The notes under the pieces: generated by a model
Told to the model about the DNA's origin: nothing
Database searches by the model: none
The model's input: the letters and a program-made list of their open reading frames with translations, nothing else
Made by a program: the position numbers and the translations under genes
Assembly (NCBI GenBank): GCA_017482055.1
Contig: JAFUOH010000013.1
Location: forward strand, 3,416-67,415
DNA: 64,000 nucleotides
Origin: Clostridia bacterium
GTDB taxonomy: Bacteria > Bacillota > Clostridia > Oscillospirales > CAG-272
Reading direction: 5' to 3'
Shown here: positions 4,322 through 13,600 of the stretch, piece by piece
Layout: every line of letters starts with the position of its first letter
How positions within the stretch are numbered: the first letter of the stretch is position 1

Positions 4322-4664
4322 ACTTCACACCACCTCTCACAAGCTGTTCCGAGAGACTTGCAACACAACGCCAAATCTTATCTGCGTTGGCTTGATACTC
4401 TCTGTCATCGACAAAGCCGAGCGAATGAGCCTTACTTGCAATCTGATTCATATTGACACCGATCTTTTGGAGTTCCCAAATCACTTGCGAATATTCTGCG
4501 GGAGGAAAAGCGACGGGGGTAAATCCGTTTATCAGTTCACGCAAGTAAGCATTCATCGTTCTTTTCGATGCTGATGACCATTCGCACAATCTCTGATACT
4601 CATCATCGTTAAGTCGAATGGTAATACGATGCTTGCGACTACGGTTTGCATCAAACTTATTCAT
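4269..4664 (-). CDS. mobC: MobC-family relaxosome accessory protein (ribbon-helix-helix)
   Basis: The sequence RKHRITIRLNDDEYQRLCEWSSASKRTMNAYLRELING...VIWELQKIGVNMNQIA is typical of plasmid mobilisation MobC proteins. It lies immediately upstream of the relaxase. Confidence 0.75.
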   Translation of the reverse strand: MNKFDANRSRKHRITIRLNDDEYQRLCEWSSASKRTMNAYLRELINGFTPVAFPPAEYSQVIWELQKIGVNMNQIASKAHSLGFVDDREYQANADKIWRCVASLSEQLVRGGVKFGYNEDMGGQGTTPTTD

Positions 4665-4777
4665 TCATTTTTGCGGCGGGGTCTTAGGGGCTGTCCCCTC
4701 ACAAGTAAGCGTTTGGGCGTCCAACCGCGATGCTTGCTAAGACTGAAAGACAGCTCCTCCCCGTCGCCGTCCTCCTT

Positions 4778-4975
4778 TCATCGCTCGTAAGACTCGCGTT
4801 TTCTTGCAGGTGATACTGCATTGAACTCTACGCCTTTGAAATCTTCCGCATCAAGAATATATTCGGAATTGTGCCAAGCATCTGACACGATCTGCTCCGC
4901 TTCGTCTCTGTCCTCTGCTTCGACTTCGACTACTTTTTCAAGAGTTTCGGTAATCTTTACCTTGTAGGTTTTCAT
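4778..4975 (-). CDS. DpnD/PcfM-like small protein
   Basis: 65 aa: MKTYKVKITETLEKVVEVEAEDRDEAEQIVSDAWHNSEYILDAEDFKGVEF. This is the beta-alpha-beta pattern I recall for DpnD/PcfM-like proteins of conjugative elements. Confidence 0.6.
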   Translation of the reverse strand: MKTYKVKITETLEKVVEVEAEDRDEAEQIVSDAWHNSEYILDAEDFKGVEFNAVSPARKRESYER

Positions 4976-4984
4976 TGATTCACC

Positions 4985-5509
4985 TCACTCTGCGTGTCTC
5001 AAGGAGTAGATTTCTTCGTCGAGCTCGTCCAAGAAATCTTCCGAATCAAGTACCATATCGGTGGGGATCTTCTTGCCGAGAGGATAGCGATAGATCATGC
5101 TTGCTTCGCTAATCGGATCACTCATCATACAGAAATAAGTGAACACGATACGCATATCGTCAAGCAACCACATCTCATACCCTTCGCAGAAATCATCATC
5201 GGCACAGCAACCTGCGATAACGAAATCATTGAGGAGAAACCCTTTGTTGCCAAACAGATTGTTGTGCTTCACGTTGAAGCTGAACTCCTCCATTCCTTCG
5301 ATCTCGCAACCACATACCGGGCGGAACTTCCAATCGAGCAACGGGTCAAAGTCCGCAAATCCATTGAGATAATCGTCAATGGTATCTGCGATAAACTTGT
5401 TCTCGTCTCTCTGCATCAGCACCTTGCGGAGCTTCTTCTTGAACTTCAAATGGTTCTTGGTATCCTTCGATACTTCATCTGTTTTGATCTGAATTTTCAC
5501 GGTTCTCAT
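4985..5509 (-). CDS. Hypothetical protein (174 aa), Cys-containing, function unknown
   Basis: Long ORF in an operon context. Its start is uncertain because it overlaps the upstream Toprim gene by 35 nt. I recognise no family. Confidence 0.5.
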   Translation of the reverse strand: MRTVKIQIKTDEVSKDTKNHLKFKKKLRKVLMQRDENKFIADTIDDYLNGFADFDPLLDWKFRPVCGCEIEGMEEFSFNVKHNNLFGNKGFLLNDFVIAGCCADDDFCEGYEMWLLDDMRIVFTYFCMMSDPISEASMIYRYPLGKKIPTDMVLDSEDFLDELDEEIYSLRHAE

Positions 5510-6452
5510 TCCTTTCGTTTTTGAAATTGATTTGTTTGGTTATCATTAGATAATCGTTGTAGTCCTTACCTTCGGGCGGAGGAATATATCGTACTTCGTA
5601 CTTTCCTCCGAGAATAACTTGCAGGGCATCAGCACCTCTCTGTCCCGCGAAATCGTTATCAAGATAAAGACAAATCTTCTTTGTGTTTGGGTGAGTTGCA
5701 AGATAATGTTCAAGCGGCATCGGTATCGTGGATTCTTCGATTTTCTTTTTCGGTAGATATATTCCCGAGAGAGATATGAGGTTTTCCGTTCGATAATCTT
5801 TTCCGATCTCCTTAAGCATCGTGGCGTATGACAGCAGATCTATCGCACTTTCAAAGACTCTGACCGTTAGATTTTCATCGTTGGATGCGATCTTGAAAGC
5901 GTATCTTTTGTCACTTCCCGCCATATCTTTTTTACCCGAGCTACCATCGGTCTCACGCGAACAGCAATGCTTGAGGTCTCCCTTTTCATCGAACCCAAGG
6001 AACAATACCGCACCACTTCTTGCGTGTTCGGTAATCATTCCTTGCTCGACACATTCATTGATGATCCCTTCATCAATGCCACGGGCAAGCAAATATTTCT
6101 TTGCTTGGTTGAGCATTGGAGTGTGTATCGGCATATAAACTCTTTCGTAAGTTTTCTTTGGTTTGGGCGAAATAAATGACGGTATTTCTACCGCCTTACC
6201 CATAACTGATTCAACTGCCGATAAGAAATCCATTCCTCGGACTTTGATAAGATAGTCAAGTGCAGATGCGCCGCCGATTCCCCTCGACCACCAAAACCAC
6301 TTACCGTTTGAGATCTTGAGTGAGTCGTGAGAACGAGTGCAGTATTCATTCCCGTCACACTTTACAAGTTCACTTGGATCGGTAGCTTTGAGATAAGAAA
6401 GAAGATCAACCTTTCGTGCTTCTGCAACTATCTCGGGTTGAATATACGCCAT
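5475..6452 (-). CDS. DUF3991 + Toprim domain protein (conjugative primase-like)
   Basis: The N-terminal VDLLSYL....C..HDSLKISNGKWFWWSRGIGGASALDYLIKVRGMDF is DUF3991-like. The C-terminal region has a Toprim-like acidic motif, ICLYLDNDFAGQRGADAL. Confidence 0.7.
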   Translation of the reverse strand: MAYIQPEIVAEARKVDLLSYLKATDPSELVKCDGNEYCTRSHDSLKISNGKWFWWSRGIGGASALDYLIKVRGMDFLSAVESVMGKAVEIPSFISPKPKKTYERVYMPIHTPMLNQAKKYLLARGIDEGIINECVEQGMITEHARSGAVLFLGFDEKGDLKHCCSRETDGSSGKKDMAGSDKRYAFKIASNDENLTVRVFESAIDLLSYATMLKEIGKDYRTENLISLSGIYLPKKKIEESTIPMPLEHYLATHPNTKKICLYLDNDFAGQRGADALQVILGGKYEVRYIPPPEGKDYNDYLMITKQINFKNERNENRENSDQNR

Positions 6453-6454
6453 AG

Positions 6455-6841
6455 TTACCTTTCGTCTCGCTCTCGCGCTTTTCTTTCTTGAACTTCTTTC
6501 TTGAACTCCTCGCGCGAGATCTCGTTTGCTTTACACTCGATTGCCCTTCTAACGGTGTCCATGTGATTCTTTTCAAAGTCCTCCCACTTGCCAAAGATCT
6601 CATCAAGTGCGTTCTCGGATTTCAAAAGAGCTTGCGCTTGTCTTGCGTGAATACTTCCACACTCAATAGCGATCACGATGTCTGAACGAACTGCATAGGC
6701 ATAAGCGTGTTCAAGCAACTGTTCGGGAGGCAGCATAAGCAAATTATTCTTGTACTCCTCAAACTCTGTGCTGACCTTTTCATAAAGTTCAGCATTAAGT
6801 TCTTCTGCTGTTTTCGGTCTTTCACCGAGCATTTTCATCAC
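6455..6841 (-). CDS. DUF3848-like conjugative-element protein
   Basis: LYEKVSTEFEEYKNNLLMLPPEQLLEHAYAYAVRSDIVIAIE matches my recollection of DUF3848 proteins. The annotated start at 6841 is GTG. The ATGs at 6838 and 6832 are alternative starts. Confidence 0.55.
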   Translation of the reverse strand: MMKMLGERPKTAEELNAELYEKVSTEFEEYKNNLLMLPPEQLLEHAYAYAVRSDIVIAIECGSIHARQAQALLKSENALDEIFGKWEDFEKNHMDTVRRAIECKANEISREEFKKEVQERKARERDER

Positions 6842-7044: not shown

Positions 7045-7111
7045 ATAGCCGAGAGAATTAAGGTGCTAATCCTCTCGGCTATGTAAAATGGGCGGTAGAC
7101 AAATACCGCCC
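7045..7111 (-). terminator. Two consecutive GC-rich hairpins ending the resistance operon
   Basis: Hairpin 1 is GGGCGGTA-6nt-TACCGCCC (7090-7111). Hairpin 2 is ATAGCCGAGAG-16nt-CTCTCGGCTAT (7045-7082). On the minus strand hairpin 2 is followed by TTTTATTT. Confidence 0.6.
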
Positions 7112-7155
7112 TTGACTATTCAATTTTAATAAACTGTTCGATAAATTGGAATTTG

Positions 7156-8028
7156 TCAATACCTATTACCATAAAGATATTTATTTGAAATTCTCTTTTG
7201 TGTTTCCAAATATTTTGTAACGTTTTCATCATAATCAGGATAATTATAACCAAGTGAATCTGCCACTTTTTTAGATATTTTTTTGAACAAACATAGACAC
7301 AAATCAAACGATTTCCACATTTCTTCATACGAACTCATTGAATATGTATTTAGTAAGTTATCCCACAATTCTTTTGAAATATGCTTATCTAAAAATTTAT
7401 AGTTTTTACCCAAACTGAAATTAAATCCTTTTTCAGTACCGACATACCAACTAATCATCCTAAGAAGCTCATGACGTAATACTTCATTCATATGGTCTAT
7501 TGCAAATAGTATTTCACCACGAAGTAAGCCCTTGGATACATATGTTGCAACATTCCAAAATTCGTTACAACAGTCATCAAACTTTCTTTCTGTTGGACAC
7601 TTAATGTAATAATCTTCATCTGTGGGAACTATTTCTGTTTTAATCATATTATCTTTATCTAACATGATTTTTACAAGTTTATCGCGAGTAAGATACTCCT
7701 CAAGCATTGAAACAGGTAACAAAGTTAAATCAATCTTTACACCATCATCAAAAAGCATTATATAAGAAAATCCTTTTTCTTCTGGAGGAAATAATTCCAT
7801 ATCTTCAGGTTTTTGCATCATAATTCTGTTACCAAAAACACTAAGCCAGTCATCGCTTTTCAAAAATTCTCCCATATCTATAACAAAAAAAGTAATATCA
7901 TAATCTTGAAGATTGTCTTTTGGTATATTAACATTAGTGCGAGACCCCTCAAGAGTTACAATTCTAATTCTCTCATCTTGAAAAGCAAAATTCAAAACTA
8001 AATCGTATATTTCTTTTTCAGTCCTCAT
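7156..8028 (-). CDS. ant(6): Aminoglycoside 6-nucleotidyltransferase ANT(6) (streptomycin resistance, AadE family)
   Basis: MRTEKEIYDLVLNFAFQDERIRIVTLEGSRTNVNIPKD..QDYDITFFV...IMMQKPEDMELFPPEEKGFSYIMLFDD..KIDLTLLP...DDCCNEFWNV...ILFAIDH...RHELLRMISW is near-colinear with ANT(6)-Ia as I recall it. The start is taken as the ATG at 8028, with GAGGTG 6 nt upstream. The track start at 8037 is GTG. Confidence 0.9.
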   Translation of the reverse strand: MRTEKEIYDLVLNFAFQDERIRIVTLEGSRTNVNIPKDNLQDYDITFFVIDMGEFLKSDDWLSVFGNRIMMQKPEDMELFPPEEKGFSYIMLFDDGVKIDLTLLPVSMLEEYLTRDKLVKIMLDKDNMIKTEIVPTDEDYYIKCPTERKFDDCCNEFWNVATYVSKGLLRGEILFAIDHMNEVLRHELLRMISWYVGTEKGFNFSLGKNYKFLDKHISKELWDNLLNTYSMSSYEEMWKSFDLCLCLFKKISKKVADSLGYNYPDYDENVTKYLETQKRISNKYLYGNRY

Positions 8029-8081
8029 TTCATTCACCTCAATAAAATTATATCACAAAAAAAGATTGATTCTAACTGTTC

Positions 8082-8849
8082 TTATAATTTGATAACCGCA
8101 TCAAGGCAGAGCGTAAGTGCATATTCGTATGCATTACCGCCCCAGTTTCTTTCGTCGTATTTGTCAACATCTGCAAGACTGTCTGCGGTATAAAGTATCA
8201 TACCCCAGGTTGCCCCTCTGAAATCAGCACAGGCCGCCAGAGCAGAACATTCCATTTCTACAACTGCACAGCCTTCACTTTTGCGATAAGCCACCTTTTC
8301 TTTGGTTTCACGGAAAAATCCATCCGTTGACCAGGTTATAACCTCCTGATATTTCATACTATGCTCAAGAATGGTTTCTTCAATTGCTTTTCTTGCCTTC
8401 TCGCTGATTTCCACAAATCGAGAAGGGGGCGCATAGTGATAAGATGTTCCCTCATCACGCAGAGCCTTGTTTGGTACGAGGAATGTACTTTCGGGGAACT
8501 TTTCCAGAGCACCGCAACTACCTGCCGAGATTACCTCTCTTACACCATAACCAATCAGCCAATCAAGTATCTGTGTGGCTGCTGCCGCACCAACGGGTGC
8601 TTGACAAAGCACAATGTCCTCACCCTTGTATTTGGTGATGTAAATGGGATAATGCTTCGTTGCACTCTCAAAAGTGGATACCTGTTTGGTATCACTTTTA
8701 CTGGCATATTCATCTATGTAAGCACCAAGAAATGCGAACACACATTTCTTGGGTAAGTTCAAACCAAGATTTTCATGAGTGGGATTAAGAACTGCTGTCT
8801 GCTCTGTATCAAACTCCAAAATCGGTATTTCGTTTTTAATAATAGCCAT
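8082..8849 (-). CDS. Nucleoside phosphorylase superfamily protein (PNP/UDP-1 fold, uridine-phosphorylase-like)
   Basis: 255 aa. The sequences ...VLCQAPVGAAAATQILDWLIGYGVREVISAGSCGAL... and ...AVVEMECSALAACA.. are typical of PNP_UDP_1 enzymes. The substrate is unknown. Confidence 0.65.
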   Translation of the reverse strand: MAIIKNEIPILEFDTEQTAVLNPTHENLGLNLPKKCVFAFLGAYIDEYASKSDTKQVSTFESATKHYPIYITKYKGEDIVLCQAPVGAAAATQILDWLIGYGVREVISAGSCGALEKFPESTFLVPNKALRDEGTSYHYAPPSRFVEISEKARKAIEETILEHSMKYQEVITWSTDGFFRETKEKVAYRKSEGCAVVEMECSALAACADFRGATWGMILYTADSLADVDKYDERNWGGNAYEYALTLCLDAVIKL

Positions 8850-8861
8850 ACTATCTCTCCG

Positions 8862-8904
8862 TCAAATTCTTATTTTCCTAACTGTTCGACCTATTGGAAT
8901 TTGT
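8862..8904. repeat. 43-bp cassette-junction repeat, copy 1
   Basis: TCAAATTCTTATTTTCCTAACTGTTCGACCTATTGGAATTTGT, identical (43/43) to 9980-10022. It lies between the stop of the MBL gene and the start of the phosphorylase gene. On the coding strand it has 7-bp terminal inverted repeats, CAAATTC...GAATTTG. Confidence 0.9.
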
Positions 8905-9492
8905 TTATTTCAATATTTTTTGATTTGCGTGAGCGTAATAAATCGCGGTTGGAGAATAACTTTTAATGCGTTCCCAATCGTTTTGTAAACTCTCATTAAG
9001 CTCATAACCATCGAGATATTCCATGGGTTCTAAATCGCCAACAAAGCATTCGCCGCTATCCAAGACTAAAGATACGCTATCTTGACTGTGACTTGGGGTA
9101 CTAACGATCTCACCGTTTAACCCGAGGCTCTTGAGGAAAGCTCTGCTTTCTTCGGTACGGATAACTGTTGCATTGTTTATATCAATCGGTTTGTAGTGCA
9201 GCCTTTTATCTCTTTTAAATATCCCGTCTGAAAAATGGACAAAAGACACTTGCGTGTCGATCAAAAGCAACTTGACGTTTTGACTCATAACCTCGCTTAT
9301 CAAGCCAATGTGATCGGGATGATAATGTGTAGCTAATACATAGGTTATATCGGAGAACCTAATATTCTGTTCTTTTATGGCTTTGTAAAAAGAAGATATC
9401 GTGCCTGCATAGTCTGTATCGACAAGCAAGCCGCCGTCTTTTCCACTAATGAAAAAAGTGTTCGTGTTGCCATATTTCAGTTTCGTAACCAT
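8905..9492 (-). CDS. MBL-fold metallo-hydrolase (195 aa)
   Basis: Contains the HxHxDH motif (ATHYHPDHIG). The start is taken at the ATG at 9492, with GGAGG 6 nt upstream. The longer track ORF (to 9609) would overlap the upstream gene. Confidence 0.7.
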   Translation of the reverse strand: MVTKLKYGNTNTFFISGKDGGLLVDTDYAGTISSFYKAIKEQNIRFSDITYVLATHYHPDHIGLISEVMSQNVKLLLIDTQVSFVHFSDGIFKRDKRLHYKPIDINNATVIRTEESRAFLKSLGLNGEIVSTPSHSQDSVSLVLDSGECFVGDLEPMEYLDGYELNESLQNDWERIKSYSPTAIYYAHANQKILK

Positions 9493-9532
9493 AACAAACC
9501 TCCATTCGTCAAATTGGAATTTGGAGAACTGT

Positions 9533-9967
9533 TTACAATCTTTTCTTGAAGCAGATGATACGATTTGCTTCATCAAATCCCATTGCCATATGGAATTTGA
9601 AACTATCAATATTGTCTATCTCACAATCACTGGCAAACTCGCTGCATCCAATTTCTTTTGCCCATATTTCACAAGCTAAAAGGAGCTCTTTTGCATATCC
9701 GTTCTTTCGGTATTCCTCTTTTACGAAAATACCTTCCAAGTAACCCACAGGAGAACTTTCTGTGCCTTCGACATAGTCAGTTCTCAAACCGCATTGCGCA
9801 AATCCTACGGGCAAATCATTTATATACTTGATAAAAAATGCAGATTGCTTGTCATTAAGTGTTTCAGCAAACTCTGCTTCTAATTCATCAACAGTATGAC
9901 TATCCCACATTTGAACAGCCATTTCTGCCAAAACACGACTGTCCCCATTTATTGCTATTCTAACCAT
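9533..9967 (-). CDS. aac(6'): Aminoglycoside 6'-N-acetyltransferase, AAC(6')-I type (GNAT)
   Basis: LRTDYVEGTESSPVGYLEGIFVKEEYRKNGYAKELLLACEIWAKEIGCSEFASDCEIDNIDSFKFHMAMGFDEANRIICFKKRL aligns closely with the AAC(6')-Iy/Ic subfamily as I recall it (IRHDYVNGCDSSPVVFLEGIFV...GCREMASDT..EN..S...H.ALGFEE.ERV..YRK). Confidence 0.85.
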   Translation of the reverse strand: MVRIAINGDSRVLAEMAVQMWDSHTVDELEAEFAETLNDKQSAFFIKYINDLPVGFAQCGLRTDYVEGTESSPVGYLEGIFVKEEYRKNGYAKELLLACEIWAKEIGCSEFASDCEIDNIDSFKFHMAMGFDEANRIICFKKRL

Positions 9968-9979
9968 TGAAACACCTCA

Positions 9980-10022
9980 TCAAATTCTTATTTTCCTAAC
10001 TGTTCGACCTATTGGAATTTGT
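9980..10022. repeat. 43-bp cassette-junction repeat, copy 2
   Basis: Identical to 8862-8904. It lies between the stop of the Lnu-like gene and the start of aac(6'). Degenerate or partial copies occur at 7132-7156 (22/25 over the right arm), 9493-9532, 8038-8081 and 10520-10550. Confidence 0.9.
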
Positions 10023-10024
10023 CG

Positions 10025-10519
10025 TTATCTATACTCATTTGGAACTTCGATATGAAATGTCTCACACAATAACTTCACATCATGTACATCATTTTCATCA
10101 AACTCGTATCCGAGATGGAACATTACTTGACTATATGGTTCAATACAGGAAACCTCTATCTCCTCAATTTTTCCTTTACCTGAAAAAATTTCTAACGGAA
10201 AGCAATCCCCCTCATAAAGAATTTCACCTTTGCCTGTATATTCAAAACAATGCAAATCAATAATTCTGTTTTTCGCATCTTCCCATACAGTATGATTCAA
10301 TGTTGTATATTCCATCTTAATTTCATAAAATCCATTAGCTTGTATTATCTCTATAAAATTCTGATAATCTTTCTTTTCTACAAAAATATCAATATCGTTA
10401 TGGCTTCTTGACTGATGTCCAAGAAGTGCATCTACACCCCAGCCGCCATCAAGAAAGACTTTAATCTCCGCATCTATTGCGAATTGAAGAATCTGTCTTA
10501 CATCTGTTATATTGACCAT
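10025..10519 (-). CDS. lnu: Lnu(A)/ANT(2'')-family nucleotidyltransferase, most like lincosamide nucleotidyltransferase Lnu(A)
   Basis: 164 aa. FLDGGWGVDALLGHQSRSHNDIDIFV matches the Lnu(A)/AadB nucleotidyltransferase motif (W.DGGWGVD.L.G.Q.R.H.DIDI). The C-terminal CIEPYSQVMFHLGYEFDENDVHDVKLL parallels Lnu(A). Confidence 0.75.
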   Translation of the reverse strand: MVNITDVRQILQFAIDAEIKVFLDGGWGVDALLGHQSRSHNDIDIFVEKKDYQNFIEIIQANGFYEIKMEYTTLNHTVWEDAKNRIIDLHCFEYTGKGEILYEGDCFPLEIFSGKGKIEEIEVSCIEPYSQVMFHLGYEFDENDVHDVKLLCETFHIEVPNEYR

Positions 10520-10557
10520 CTTATCATCCTCACAAATTCTTATTTATCGGTGAGTTT

Positions 10558-10586
10558 ATTATATCATAAAAATGTGAAATTTTCAA
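10558..10586 (-). promoter_or_regulatory. SigA-type promoter of the resistance operon
   Basis: The minus strand reads TTGAAA-17nt-TATAAT, about 35 nt upstream of the lnu-like ATG. Confidence 0.6.
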
Positions 10587-10629
10587 TCAGTTCTGAATTA
10601 TATCTTAACTTTCAATTTCTCTTATGTAA

Positions 10630-10653
10630 GGCAACAGTACAATGTCTGTTGCC
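10630..10653 (-). terminator. Hairpin downstream of the giant ORF (possible terminator)
   Basis: GGCAACAG-8nt-CTGTTGCC, 34 nt after the stop at 10687. The U-tract is weak. Confidence 0.4.
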
Positions 10654-10686
10654 CGCACGTCTTATTTTCACCGTGCAATCTGACCG

Positions 10687-13600
10687 TTATCTGTCGGTAC
10701 GATCAGATCTCGTTCTGCTGTTCTCGTCGCGCTCATCCTCGCTCTGCTCCTCTGCGCCGTCAACGATCTCGTTCTCTCGCTTATCCATATTCAGCTCAGC
10801 ATTGAGTTCTGCAAGTCGCTTGCATTTTTCCTCAAGCTCTGCTTCTCTTGCAAAGGGTTTAGCGATCTCCGCCTTCGCGTTCTCGACCTGCTTATGCAGT
10901 TCTTCAAGCTGAAGCTCACAGCCCTGCTTTCGCTTTTCAAAGGCTTCGATAGCATTGTCAAGACGGATAATGATACCGTTAGCATCTTGTCCGAGTGGAA
11001 CTTTGTGAAAGAGTTTTCCTCGCAAATTGATAAAGAACTCTCTACCAAAGGTATCAAATCCAATCTCCATTTTGAAACCACGATATTCACCAAGAGGTCT
11101 TTCGTCGGGCGAGTTGATGCGCTCACATACAGCGAGGATCGCCTTACCCGCTTCTGCCTTTTCGGTATAGGTCGTGCCCATAACTTCCATCGGGGAGAAT
11201 CCGTTTTCATTCGGGAACGTGGAGTTCTTTGCGGTTTCAATATCCTCGATCAAGCACTTAATTCTCTCCTCTTGGTCGGCAATATTCCTCGGGAACTTCT
11301 TGATAAGAGCGTCCTCAAGGCTGTACCTCTGACTCAAGTGATCTGCCTTTTGAAGCTTCAGTTTTGCAACGTCGGCATCAAGCTGCATCTTCTCCATAAT
11401 CTTCGGATTGCCGCTTGCAAGAGCCTTGATCTCCGCATAGGATAGGGCGGTCTCGTCCACGTCCTCTGCACTTCTTACCGGAGATTTACTCGTCATAATC
11501 TGCGAAATAAACTTCTGTTTGCTCTCAAGAAGCTGATAGGAATAGGCGTCGAAGGTTCCCTCCGTAACGTAACGGTAAAGGTCAACCTCGGGGTTGGAGT
11601 TTCCTTGTCGGACAATTCGACCTGCTCTCTGTTCAAGGTCAGCGGGTCTCCACGGAACGTCAAGGTCGTGAAGTGCAATGAGTCTCTGCTGCACGTTTGT
11701 GCCGGCTCCCATCTTGAAGGTTGAACCCATAAGCACTCTGACTTGTCCACGGCGAACCTTGGCAAAAAGTTCTTTCTTCTTTGTGTCGGTATCTGCCGCG
11801 TGAATGAAAGCGATCTCCTCGGGCGGTATTCCCCGCTCAATGAGTTTATTTCTGATGTCATCATAAACATTGAAGCTGCCGTCATCCTTCGGTGTGGAAA
11901 GGTCGCAGAACACAAGCTGTGCCGCCTTTTTATCCGCATACTTTTCCCAAATCTCGTAGATGTTCTGAACGCAAGTGTTGACCTTACTTCCATCATAATC
12001 TCCAAGACCAATATCGACAAGTCGCTGATCAAGTGCAGCCTTTCGTCCGTCGTTTGTGATGAGAAGCATATTGTCCTCTGTTGAGCTTACCATACGGTTG
12101 TGAACCCTTTCGGCTCTCTCCGCAAAGGACTCAACGAGTTCTTTCTGCTCCTCACTTGCTTCGACCTTGACGATGTGGTAGTGCGCTTCGGGTACGGGAA
12201 GTTTGAGCATATCTGCGGTCTGAATGTCCGCCGTCTGCTTAAACATTGCCATCAGCTCGGGGATGTTAAAGAACTTTGCAAAGCGTGTCTTTGCTCGGTA
12301 TCCGCTACCATCGGGTGCAAGCTCTATTGCCGTTACCGTCTCGCCAAAGGTCGATGCCCAAGCATCAAAATTGAGAAGTCCGCGCAACTGAAGCTCATCG
12401 TACTGAAGGTATTTCTGCATCGTGTAAAGCTCTACCATCGTATTGGAGATAGGCGTACCCGTTGCAAACACACAACCCTTTCCTCCTGTCAGTTCGTCAA
12501 GATAACGACACTTCATATAGAGGTCGGAGGATTTCTGTGCTTCGGTCTGTGAGATACCTGCTACGTTTCGCATCTTGGTATATGCCGCGAGGTTCTTATA
12601 GAAGTGTGCCTCGTCCACAAACAGACGGTCAACGCCAAGCTCCTCAAAGGTCACGACGTCATCCTTTCGGCTTTGGTCATTGAGCTTTGCAAGTTTTGTC
12701 TCGATCTGCTTTCTCGCTTTGGCGAGCTGCTTGACGGTTACTCTGTCTCCTCTTGATGCTTGGATCTCCTCAATACTTTGCAGTATTTGGTCACGCTCAT
12801 TGTTAAGCGTTTCGATCTGTCTCTCAAGGGACATCGGGATCTTCTCAAACTGTGAGTGACCGATGATAACAGCATCGTAGTCACCCGTAGCAATTCTTGC
12901 ACAGAACTTCTTACGGTTTTTGGTTTCAAAGTCTTTCTTGGTAGCGACAAGGATATTTGCGCTCGGATAGAGTTGCAGATATTCACTTGCCCACTGTTCA
13001 ATAAGATGGTTGGGAACAACAAACATACTCTTGTTACAGAGTCCGAGTCTCTTGCTCTCCTGCGCCGCCGCAACCATCGTAAAGGTCTTACCTGCACCGA
13101 CAACGTGTGCAAGGAGTGAGTTACCGCCGTACATAATTCTTGCCACGGCATCGCTCTGATGCTTTCTCAAGGTAATCTCGGGGTTCATACCAAAGAACTT
13201 GATGTGGCTACCGTCAAACTCACGGGGGCGAATACTGTTGAAACGCTCGTTATAGAGCTTACAAAGTCTCTCTCGCCTTGCCGGGTCTTTCCATATCCAC
13301 TCGTCAAACGCTCTCTTGATCTGCTCCTGCTTACCTTGTGCAATTGCAGTTTCCTTTTTGTTGAGGACTTGCTTTTTGTTTCCGTTCTCGTCAATCGGGT
13401 AATCAAAGATACGCACGTCCTTGAGGTTCAAGCTCTCCTCGATGATCTCATAACCGTTGATTCGATGAGTACCGTAAGCGTTTACCGCCTTGACATTTCC
13501 TCTGTCTCTTGTCTTATTGGTTATGACCCATTGTGAGGTCTGCGGAATGAATTTGACCTCGATAAGCCTTCTCATATAGAAAGGCGTTCCGAGCAATTCG

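Follow-up and report, generated by a model that had tools for sequence, protein, structure and literature searches.

Integrons are the closest described parallel to the gene array analysed here. They share with it co-oriented, mostly promoter-less single-ORF cassettes under one upstream promoter, a recombination site that abuts the stop codon, a cargo made up mostly of GNATs, glyoxalase/bleomycin-type proteins, methyltransferases and resistance genes, the occurrence of one cassette in many orders and hosts, and arrays that ride conjugative elements. The differences lie in the recombination machinery: no intI lies beside the Clostridia array, and searches for an integrase gave no tyrosine recombinase in the window (the whole stretch of 64,000 nucleotides of Clostridia DNA that was analysed) and only sporadic ones in about 200 loci. 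The Clostridia sites are conserved by sequence and not by fold, carry their AAC/GTT boxes centrally and do not have the make-up of attC sites, which are longer than 43 bp, and both ends of every cassette carry a site, the two being inverted relative to each other. The hosts differ as well, since these arrays belong to Clostridia and Firmicutes are nearly without integrons (PMC9024848).

The pdif (Xer) modules of Acinetobacter plasmids resemble the array in their short sites in alternating orientation, in having no linked recombinase and in the appearance of one module in many backbones. They differ in hosts and replicons, and in Clostridia each module is one ORF with standardised RBS spacing, the modules standing in tandem behind a common promoter; the sites have no evident likeness to dif (11-6-11, with a TTATG.. 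XerD arm) or to the Firmicutes dif consensus. Heterospecific lox/FRT sites for RMCE also combine like arms with unlike centres (here AAGA vs TCCA), and internal sites with one good and one degraded arm recall lox66/lox71, but this is an engineering analogy only: the arms here are much shorter than 13 bp, and no natural recombinase was found. MITEs and mobile insertion cassettes share the inverted repeats, but neither target duplications nor an IS with matching ends were found in the loci examined. Unlike shufflons and invertons, the cassettes are all co-oriented, with no adjacent invertase in the loci examined. Finally, MTnSag1/ISSag10 of streptococci and Pasteurellaceae plasmids carries an lnu(C) gene 93% identical in DNA to that of the window; there an IS1595-family transposase moves the gene in a 1.7-kb unit, the sites are decayed and there is no array.

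We could not find a prior description of cassette arrays with this joint. The motif strings were unmatched in the literature save for chance hits (e.g. primers), and a keyword search gave no paper on such arrays.

Structure of the array

The array in the window is listed in Table 1. Arrays of this kind are predicted, from their promoters and terminators, to be single transcription units, and about 40 other loci have an equivalent promoter ahead of their start site.

Table 1. Features of the resistance gene array in the window, listed from the promoter to the terminators.
Feature	Position	Strand	Evidence or remark
Array promoter, TTGAAA-17 nt-TATAAT with upstream TG	10558..10586	-	11/12 match, region's best
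Array-start site R' (AAACTCACCGATAAATAAGAATTTGT), core AAAT-AAGA-ATTTG	10532..10557	-	directly downstream of promoter
Cassette 1, lnu(C)-family lincosamide nucleotidyltransferase	10025..10519	-	NF000141, 348.7 bits vs cut-off 300
43-bp joint, copy 1 (L + overlapping R)	9980..10022	-	exact match to copy 2
Cassette 2, aminoglycoside 6'-N-acetyltransferase, group E, aac(6')	9533..9967	-	NF043067, 199 bits vs cut-off 140
Minimal joint	9493..9532	-	single 14-bp palindrome CAAATTCCAATTTG at 9510-9523, then next cassette's SD directly
Cassette 3, MBL-fold hydrolase	8905..9492	-	weak Anti-Pycsar Apyc1 match
43-bp joint, copy 2	8862..8904	-	exact match to copy 1
Cassette 4a, PNP_UDP_1 phosphorylase-superfamily protein	8082..8849	-	GC ~46% vs ~31% for neighbours
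Decayed joint (TCAAATTATAAGAACAGTTAGAATCAA)	8038..8093	-	starts within last PNP codons
Cassette 4b, aminoglycoside 6-adenylyltransferase ANT(6)	7156..8028	-	NF033084, 449.9 bits vs cut-off 420
Array-terminal site L' (ACAAATTCCAATTTATCGAACAGTT)	7132..7156	-	left half; inverted repeat of R'
Two intrinsic terminators closing the array transcription unit	7045..7111	-	predicted from sequence

A sequence-only reading of this DNA had reported an identical 43-bp element at two of the junctions, and the two copies were confirmed to match at 43/43 positions. The window has no further copy within three mismatches, and none is expected by chance: the 43-mer appeared in none of 100 dinucleotide-preserving shuffles. 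The element had been described as running from a stop codon to about 15 nt before the next start; the distance to the start is 12 nt. Copy 1 extends from 2 nt past the lnu(C) stop to 12 nt short of the aac(6') ATG, and copy 2 from immediately 3' of the MBL stop to 12 nt short of the PNP ATG.

The 43-mer is two overlapping, oppositely oriented copies of one asymmetric site, whose core is the palindrome CAAAT-N4-ATTTG. In copy 1 the L site is ACAAATT-CC-AATAGGTCGAACAGTT and the overlapping R site is AACAGTTAGGAAAATA-AG-AATTTG. The L site and the R site of the next cassette have the palindromic AACAGTT in common. The inverted repeats that had been noticed at its ends are real; they make better sense as cassette-side arms, one from each of two distinct sites that overlap, than as the termini of one 43-bp unit. 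Sites are conserved in sequence, with a 14-16-bp palindromic core within 25-34 bp, and the terminal array sites are strongly palindromic (z -3.8 and -8).

The remaining four junctions had been taken for degenerate versions of the same element. They are indeed related sites, of different kinds: a start, a terminal, a minimal and a decayed site. The outer arm of R' derives from the platform, and the R' region pairs as inverted repeat I1 with 7127-7156. The first A of L' is the final base of the ant(6) TGA, and the backbone flank that follows L' in the window was found behind other terminal cassettes in loci L049 and L108. Minimal joints of the type seen in the window also occur in L035, L040, L053, L126, L147, L205 and L209. 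The decayed joint has its own extended -10 box (TGTGATATAAT, 8047-8057), and the PNP and ant(6) genes on its two sides are adjacent in every array compared, L064 included; they travel as a fused double cassette.

Distribution and cargo of the joint

The sequence-only reading had proposed a search for the element in other genomes and a catalogue of the genes beside it. Species-representative genomes were searched with the left 25 nt of the joint, ACAAATTCCAAT-NNN-TCGAACAGTT, and the pattern was found in 110 loci of about 110 genomes, from more than 100 gut Clostridia species. Gut Clostridia MAGs account for nearly all of these, and two sequenced strains (non-MAG genome records) are also among them. 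Sequenced strains with arrays are 'Bacterium D16-50' (RAZA01000009) and Lachnospiraceae IMSAGC_003. The pattern fixes 22 nt of L, so the conservation of L itself is partly by design. The genes directly 5' of the left half fall into about 92 clusters (roughly 90 unrelated small genes), among them GNATs, kinases, methyltransferases, lnu(C) and ant(6), and L starts -1 to +5 nt from the stop codon in 58 of 87 cases. The 43-mer had no match in PLSDB plasmids or INPHARED phages, and the 25-nt pattern had none in IMG/VR contigs.

The data are nearly all metagenome assemblies. The k-mers used in assembly, as given in contig names (k99-k141), are longer than 43 bp, so assembly chimeras are unlikely to account for the joints. 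Many site matches lie at or close to contig ends, and cassette joints may help account for assembly breaks at these loci.

Forms of the joint and exchange of cassettes

The form of the joint depends on what follows it. Ahead of a further gene, the left half continues into AGGAAAATAAGAATTTG and a ribosome-binding site; in the array-terminal position, a terminator comes after it. R was absent from the pattern that collected the 112 left halves, and it follows 63 of them, 40 exactly, with a bimodal distribution of mismatches; 31 exact 42-mers are present among the joints. Nucleotides 13-15 of L track the downstream context, being AGG before R and TTG, TTA or ATG at array ends (Fisher p = 1.5e-13), and an AAT[G/T]TG polymorphism of R moves with the downstream MerR cassette. 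The left half is kept after the last cassette, where no cistron follows, and the right half is kept at array starts without a left half.

Among ICEs with near-identical backbones, cassettes have been replaced exactly at the cores. Between L113 on one side and L112 and the window on the other, the difference is confined between ..AATAAGAATTTG and GACAAATTCC.., and in L116 a different cassette follows copy 2 of the 43-bp joint, with divergence starting after AGGAAAATAAGAAT, inside the R core. One cassette was found both in first position, after the platform-derived CCGATAAAT, and in an internal position, after AGGAAAAT; the exchange therefore maps within the shared 13-nt core. The expected reciprocal forms of the joint are also present, one attP-like (CAAATTCCAATTTG plus SD) and one attB-like (AGGAAAAT plus TCCAATTTGTCGAGCAGTT).

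Reordering was seen as well. An identical Lnu(C) protein is encoded in at least nine unrelated chromosomal or ICE contexts, and lnu(C) was seen both before and after a hexapeptide acetyltransferase gene, with the minimal palindrome as the joint. In the arrays examined, every cassette lying between sites reads in the direction of the promoter. For one cassette family, sampled without bias, sites are still present in diverged form (R = AAAT-NN-GAATTTG, L = CAAATTC-NN-ATTT), and homologues in a native operon are without sites. Altogether, the roughly 90 gene families, the roughly 110 genomes and the exact breakpoints strongly support the initial description of a cassette-like organisation without an integron, and cargo diversity and replacement breakpoints do the same for modular assembly through a shared recombination site, one of the three explanations offered with it.

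Proposed mechanism and alternatives

Based on these comparisons, the 43-mer is probably the standard joint of mobile promoter-less single-ORF cassettes in gut Clostridia arrays, recombined at the core sites by an unlinked recombinase. The anatomy, distribution and cargo diversity, as well as the exact breakpoints of replacement and reordering, are observed. A cassette extends from just past GAATTTG, through its own SD, ORF and stop, to just before CAAATTC, and on either side of it lies a copy of the asymmetric site, the two copies being inverted, with R upstream and L downstream. R has the outer arm ..GTTCGAYAAAT, the centre NNGA and the inner arm ATTTG, and L the inner arm CAAAT, the centre TCNN and the outer arm ATTTRTCGAACAGTT. 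The arrays sit in expression platforms of promoter, R', cassettes, L' and terminator; platforms were found on ICEs, on small TIR-bounded elements and on chromosomes. A conservative site-specific recombinase of the tyrosine or serine type, presumably encoded elsewhere in the ICE or host, would cut and join at the CAAAT-N4-ATTTG cores. Since R and L have unlike centres (AAGA and TCCA), R would preferentially recombine with R and L with L, and whole cassettes would be exchanged; the R half would supply each cassette with a standard translation-initiation context. Cassette circles would carry ..ACAAATTCCAAT(AAG)AATTTG.. or ACAAATTCCAATTTG plus SD, and empty slots would read ..AAAT-TCCA-ATTTGTCGAACAGTT. 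With centres that differ between R and L, a canonical R-by-L excision would not be simple. The invariant arms span just 5-7 bp, and slippage between AATTTG repeats is another possible origin of minimal and 'empty' joints.

The enzyme was sought in several ways. Within 8-10 kb of the arrays no recombinase gene turns up consistently, and the ICE part of the window has none. Queries with gamma-delta resolvase, Hin, XerD and a Tn916-like Int (phmmer, six-frame ORFs) gave no recombinase in the window and, in about 200 loci, sporadic ICE/IME integrases only. Pfam searches of 30 window ORFs returned a relaxase, a primase, ParB, a Tad-like ATPase and SNF2/methylase, and no recombinase; the neighbours of the array in the window are an SNF2/methylase gene and DUF3848/Toprim genes. 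A search by terminal overlaps gave no circular cassette contigs, and no pair of one same site, filled and empty, was found.

Several candidate leads were set aside. The region upstream of the NikA-like gene (4664-4780), considered as a relaxase/oriT site, has no similarity to L or R sites. Long ORFs within cassettes were considered as transposases, and the 618-aa ORF in L138 resembles a glycoside hydrolase. The 'empty' type-A platforms in L045 and L079 are chance matches to the TIR motif inside a GrpB gene. The likeness of the sites to streptococcal difSL or attC boxes was too weak to use.

Two explanations take the joint for something already familiar. It could be primarily an RNA element, either an intercistronic hairpin for processing or stability or a common translational leader, with its spread secondary, and the sequence-only reading had offered both forms. 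The fit to a leader is real on one side of the joint: the distance from the end of the right half to the start codon is always about 9-16 nt, many cassettes share an extension of R into the SD (GAATTTG-TAGGTG or -ACGGAG), and the arrays are transcribed, by prediction, as single units. This leaves the left half and the shuffling unexplained, as well as the precise DNA breakpoints, and both the retention of the left half after the last cassette and that of the right half at array starts speak against it. The hairpin fares worse. The 7-bp stem with its loop of about 27 nt pairs on paper, but as DNA it reaches only -2.3 kcal/mol, no better than shuffles (z -0.8 to -1.0); RNA folds of the joints in context have z of +1.1 and -0.6, and Rfam has no family match at joints or platforms, all of which argues against a processing or stability hairpin. 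An RNA element is therefore improbable as the primary function. A degenerate integron, that is, an attC cluster without integrase (CALIN) served by an IntI supplied from elsewhere, seems to us very improbable indeed. A co-oriented array of promoter-less cassettes behind a single promoter would look like this, and the joint has GTCGAAC and GTTAGGA, which match the attC boxes R'' (RYYYAAC) and R' (GTTRRRY) at 6/7 positions each. Yet the two boxes sit side by side in the middle of the element and not at its ends, the 43 bp are conserved by sequence and not by structure, the TTAGGAA that a G|TT crossover should leave is missing from first cassettes, and integrons are almost absent from Firmicutes (PMC9024848).

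Two further explanations accept that the cassettes move and differ on how, and we regard each as unlikely. In one there is no dedicated enzyme: the joints serve as 'adaptors', and shuffling proceeds by homologous or microhomology recombination or by replication slippage, e.g. in conjugation or transformation. The negative recombinase search is in keeping with this, the 43-bp joints are often 100% identical (hence the exact 42-mers) and offer some homology, and a deletion between two AATTTG repeats would be enough to describe a minimal joint. However, the first-versus-internal breakpoints fall within a shared core of merely 13 nt, and 13 nt is far below the homology length usually held necessary for RecA-dependent recombination. 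The palindromic two-arm architecture persists in diverged lineages, where homology alone would have no need for it, and the origin of the same ends, a few nt from stop and SD, on about 90 unrelated genes is left unexplained. In the other, the cassette is a non-autonomous transposable unit, MITE-like or like a mobile insertion cassette, with TIRs GAATTTG...CAAATTC and a transposase acting in trans on a palindromic hot spot ..TCGACAAAT|ATTTGTCGA... Inverted repeats do bound the cassettes, and the flanking outer arms are jointly palindromic, perfectly so in L098. IS30-family elements target palindromic hot spots and their own ends, which provides a precedent, and one platform type is itself a TIR-bounded non-autonomous element in or beside terminator hairpins. 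Against transposition stand the lack of target-site duplications, the central dinucleotides of R and L, which are inverted and not direct repeats, TIRs of merely 7-8 bp, and about 200 loci with no transposase-bearing element with matching ends.

Implications

If cassettes are recombined at the core sites as proposed, gut Clostridia, and other Firmicutes through ICEs, may own a gene-capture system analogous to integrons, although we hold this broader reading only tentatively. It would use short palindromic sites of a new class, whose centres are heterospecific, and a recombinase encoded off the array, and its mobility would be nested on two levels, with cassettes moving within platforms and the platforms themselves moving as TIR-bounded elements or as ICE cargo. 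The mechanistic question it raises is which enzyme would act on palindromes of 14-16 bp whose centres are unlike. For mining thousands of cassettes from gut metagenomes, the cores CAAATTCCAATTTG and AATAAGAATTTG give a simple handle.

The homology between MTnSag1 and the window runs from A(A/T)TAGAATTTG to ..CAAAT, and remnants of the R and L cores flank lnu(C) there. Because of these remnants, Clostridia arrays are a likely source of the clinical lnu(C). If the reading is true, such arrays would be a major unrecognised route by which lnu(C), ant(6) and aac(6') were assembled before reaching pathogens.

A repeated spacer in the resistance-gene array

Five co-oriented genes span 7156-10519 on the minus strand, and with one promoter and two terminators the block makes up a single transcription unit. 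A 43-bp element had been reported between the resistance genes from sequence alone, and this was borne out: two mismatch-free copies were found, the window has no third one even at up to three mismatches, and 100 shuffles yielded none. Its coding-strand sequence is ACAAATTCCAATAGGTCGAACAGTT followed by AGGAAAATAAGAATTTGA. The lnu(C) and ant(6) genes have a GC content of about 31%, against about 46% for the PNP_UDP_1 gene and the array flanks; the differing values fit separate origins of the array genes.

Features of the array, its host element and related loci (window positions unless an L-number, a locus from another genome or contig, is given)
Feature	Position or locus	Strand	Remark
43-bp element TCAAATTCTTATTTTCCTAACTGTTCGACCTATTGGAATTTGT	8862-8904, 9980-10022		zero mismatches between copies
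lnu(C)-family gene	within 7156-10519	minus	NF000141, above cut-off
aac(6') group E gene	within 7156-10519	minus	
MBL-fold cassette gene	8905-9492	minus	
PNP_UDP_1 gene	8082-8849	minus	
ant(6) gene	7156-8028	minus	
Decayed joint, PNP_UDP_1/ant(6) pair	8038-8093		
Internal extended -10 promoter, same pair	8047-8057		
Array promoter	10586-10558		TTGAAA-17-TATAAT with upstream TG
Two terminators	7111-7045		
R' and L'	10532-10561, 7127-7156		mutually inverted repeats
Joint L'(TTG)+R			
Minimal joint CAAATTCCAATTTG+SD	9510-9523		also L035, L040, L053, L126, L147, L205, L209
Joint L'-terminator-promoter-R'	L073, L100, L138		
'Empty slot' AGGAAAAT-TCCA-ATTTGTCGAGCAGTT	L092		similar form in L077
Tandem R-like and L-like remnants	L027, L051, L081, L085, L086		comparable to 'empty slots'
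ICE stretch	1-38500		right end near 38.5-39.4 kb
TIR-bounded platform	L047 about 5450-6730		oriented; example
Single-cassette promoter-R'-lnu(C)-L' units	L210 about 9750-10600; L208 about 9770-11000		between direct duplications
Tandem tRNA 3'-end-like fragments	L204, L205 about 10600-10920		downstream of lnu(C) cassette
Tn916-like integrase gene	L028 3338-4870; L101 2-1190; L029 1462-2870		
Swapped ant(6) 3' end	L113 12270-12520		
Diverged array lineage	L198 850-7200		metagenome contig ULWX01008062

The MBL-fold cassette protein scores far under all beta-lactamase cut-offs and has a weak precomputed match to Anti-Pycsar Apyc1 (PF23023); rather than a beta-lactamase, it may therefore be a hydrolase of cyclic nucleotides or other small molecules. 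The PNP_UDP_1 and ant(6) genes always travel together and, with their decayed joint and internal promoter, look like a fused double cassette. The pair joins a phosphorylase-superfamily gene to the gene of an aminoglycoside nucleotidyltransferase.

Distribution and cargo

Other genomes were searched for the element and the flanked genes were listed, as the sequence-only reading had proposed. The search pattern was the 25-nt left half, ACAAATTCCAATNNNTCGAACAGTT, with the right half not included, and it matched 110 loci when each species was represented by a single genome. The host bins are nearly all gut Clostridia MAGs (Lachnospiraceae, Oscillospiraceae, Acutalibacteraceae, Christensenellaceae, Ruminococcus, Faecousia), and the bin labels outside Clostridia are Treponemataceae (one), Bacteroidales (one) and Bacilli (two). 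Two non-MAG records also carry the left-half site, Bacterium D16-50 and Lachnospiraceae IMSAGC_003 (L081 and L085). Assembly chimeras are an unlikely source of the arrays, because the 43-bp repeat is shorter than the k-mers in the contig names (k99-k141) and because the site is present in these two records. The full 43-mer had no match in PLSDB plasmids or INPHARED phages, and the left-half pattern had none in IMG/VR contigs.

The left-half site (L) sits 3' of a gene's stop codon in all 110 loci; of 87 cases, 58 have its start at -1 to +5 nt relative to the stop, whose last A is often common to both. The right-half site (R) follows L in 63 of 112 copies, 40 of them exact, with a sharply bimodal mismatch distribution; after GAATTTG come the SD and, mostly 9-16 nt on, the start codon. 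The remaining 49 copies are array ends, where diverse backbone comes next, with a terminator hairpin in most. Arrays start with a promoter (-10 box TGnTATAAT), then ..(T/C)CGA(T/C)AAATAAGAATTTG, then the first SD. About 160 ORFs adjoin L and fall into about 92 BLAST clusters. Pfam searches of 76 cluster representatives gave 12 GNAT acetyltransferases, along with P-loop kinases, SAM methyltransferases, alpha/beta hydrolases, GrpB, glyoxalase/bleomycin-type proteins, cytidine deaminases and PNPOx.

Cassette movement

Within the collection, 308 blocks hold the window MBL protein and 1245 the window Lnu(C). Identical Lnu(C) occurs in at least nine unrelated settings, including 3' of rplM-rpsI, beside spoIIA genes, RNase Y and RecA, after an MFS transporter, and within other ICEs. 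ICEs sharing the window backbone bear variant arrays. In L113 a 153-aa GNAT replaces lnu(C), with identity to the window until ..AATAAGAATTTG and again from GACAAATTCC..., and in L116 MerR, GNAT and methyltransferase cassettes replace PNP and ant(6) behind the second 43-mer, with divergence starting past AGGAAAATAAGAAT. Both orders of lnu(C) and a hexapeptide acetyltransferase are known (L205 versus L209), and their sole link is (A/T)AAATTCCAATTTG. One P-loop kinase cassette is preceded by many different neighbours. About 50 human-gut contigs hold homologues of it, in an ordinary operon without L or R; the sites are therefore a property of the cassette state, not of the gene.

L113 also has the 3' end of ant(6) swapped, at an internal R-like AAGAGAATTTG, for a C-terminal fragment of a short-chain dehydrogenase that is closed by its own L' site, apparently through an off-target event at a pseudo-site within the coding region.

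Site anatomy and exchange points

The array-terminal site L' (TTG variant) holds a perfect palindrome, ACAAATT-CC-AATTTGT, which in L098 extends over 34 bp (AACTGTTCGACAAATTCCAATTTGTCGAACAGTT); both palindromes score as strong (z -3.8 and -8). The array-start site R' has the arms of L' and a different centre (..CGA(C/T)AAAT-AAGA-ATTTGT). Members of one cassette family, sampled without bias, carry diverged forms of the sites: YGAYAAAT-NN-GAATTTG for R and CAAATTC-NN-ATTTRTCGA for L. These forms, together with the inverted-repeat relation of R' and L', show R and L to be one asymmetric site in two orientations, whose outer arm is long and whose arm facing the cassette is short. In the 43-mer, an L site (ACAAATT-CC-AATAGGTCGAACAGTT) and an R site (AACAGTTAGGAAAATA-AG-AATTTG) overlap in the palindromic AACAGTT, and the outer arm of every internal site is degraded relative to terminal sites.

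The joints of the diverged array in L198 are shorter (ACAACTTCCAACTTGTTGGGCAG-AAAAATTTGAAGTTG is an example). At one of them the cassette-side arms are altered jointly (CAACTTC, GAAGTTG); those of the other joints in that array are not.

Nucleotides 13-15 of L are AGG in 51 of 63 copies with R downstream and TTG, ATG or TTA in 41 of 49 at array ends (Fisher p = 1.5e-13), an association kept even behind one gene, lnu(C). The five bases 5' of AAATAAG track the upstream context (CCGAT behind the promoter, AGGAA behind L), and an AAT[G/T]TG variant of R travels with the downstream MerR cassette. Together these place the exchange points inside a stretch of about 10 bp in the middle of each core.

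Mechanism and comparison with known systems

The most economical reading would be conservative site-specific recombination at CAAAT-N4-ATTTG cores. Because R and L differ at the centre (AAGA versus TCCA), exchange would then be favoured between sites of the same kind. The minimal and 'empty' joints would be compatible with R-by-L events that were resolved on one or other side of the centre and left reciprocal products. No recombinase proved to be consistently linked to the arrays in about 200 loci, and none lies in the ICE part of the window; oriT-like similarity and cassette circles were looked for and not found. Shuffling by short-homology recombination was weighed against this, and first and internal copies of a cassette have just 13 nt of homology in common. 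Inverted repeats bounding the cassettes are what a second rival, TIR cassettes mobilised in trans, would draw on. An RNA element had been suggested with a hairpin in the 43-mer, whose predicted fold proved marginal.

As for an integron remnant, the array organisation works like that of an integron, but intI/attI at the array and the attC structure are missing, so that the window array is negative in both defining integron tests; integrons are also nearly absent from Firmicutes (PMC9024848). The pdif modules resemble the cassette sites in their alternating sites and unlinked recombinase, but no dif-likeness is evident here.

In three loci (L028, L101, L029) the gene of a Tn916-like tyrosine integrase, the sole recombinase seen repeatedly beside arrays, precedes an L site by one to two genes and points the same way; in L028 and L101 it ends shortly before the array promoter. 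The enzyme probably belongs to the host IME.

Host elements and platforms

The window array lies inside an ICE, between the gene for a 3440-aa fusion of MutS_I, Eco57I-type methylase and SNF2 on one side and DUF3848, Toprim-primase, NikA and relaxase genes on the other. The ICE combines several modules, one of which comprises a MobA/VirD2 relaxase, a NikA-like protein, DUF3801, an ArdC-like protein and a Toprim/DUF3991 primase. The ICE also encodes a 1316-aa surface protein with Listeria-Bacteroides repeats, Tad/Flp-like pilus components (T2SSE ATPase, RcpC/CpaB, prepilin peptidase) and ParB. Its integrase is located beyond the window.

One platform type runs terminator, promoter, R', cassettes, L' and a structured tail of about 150 nt (L203, L207, L211, L008, L047, L063). 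It is itself a non-autonomous element with terminal inverted repeats of about 22 bp (G[CG]GC..TTCCC[TG]TAGGGATTT), and its chromosomal insertion sites are numerous and unrelated. The L211 copy lies within a host terminator hairpin, in the loop; those of L047 and L203 adjoin a tRNA gene or tRNA 3'-end fragments. The single-cassette lnu(C) units of L210 and L208 are flanked by duplications of a sequence of about 45 bp containing a terminator, which hints that whole platforms may be inserted by a separate, terminator-associated mechanism. The tandem tRNA fragments (..GGTTCGAATCTGTCC..) of L204 and L205, spaced about 80-100 nt, form the pattern expected where integration into a tRNA gene and excision from it have recurred.

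Standing of the system and clinical lnu(C)

The cassette/site system is real and widespread, and is a kind of cassette/recombination-site module. It appears to be undescribed so far: literature searches by motif string and keyword found no description of such arrays among the papers covered, and prior publication is possible.

Clinical lnu(C) in MTnSag1/ISSag10 contexts, which include Glaesserella, Enterococcus, Streptococcus, Cetobacterium and Ligilactobacillus plasmids, has 93% identity to the window gene. Homology between window 10017-10544 and 1500-2040 of plasmid pHN61 (L111, NC_012661) runs from A(A/T)TAGAATTTG to ..CAAAT, after which comes AACAGTT-TGTAGG. Decayed R and L.R remnants thus lie on either side of the clinical gene, which suggests capture of clinical lnu(C) from such a cassette array.
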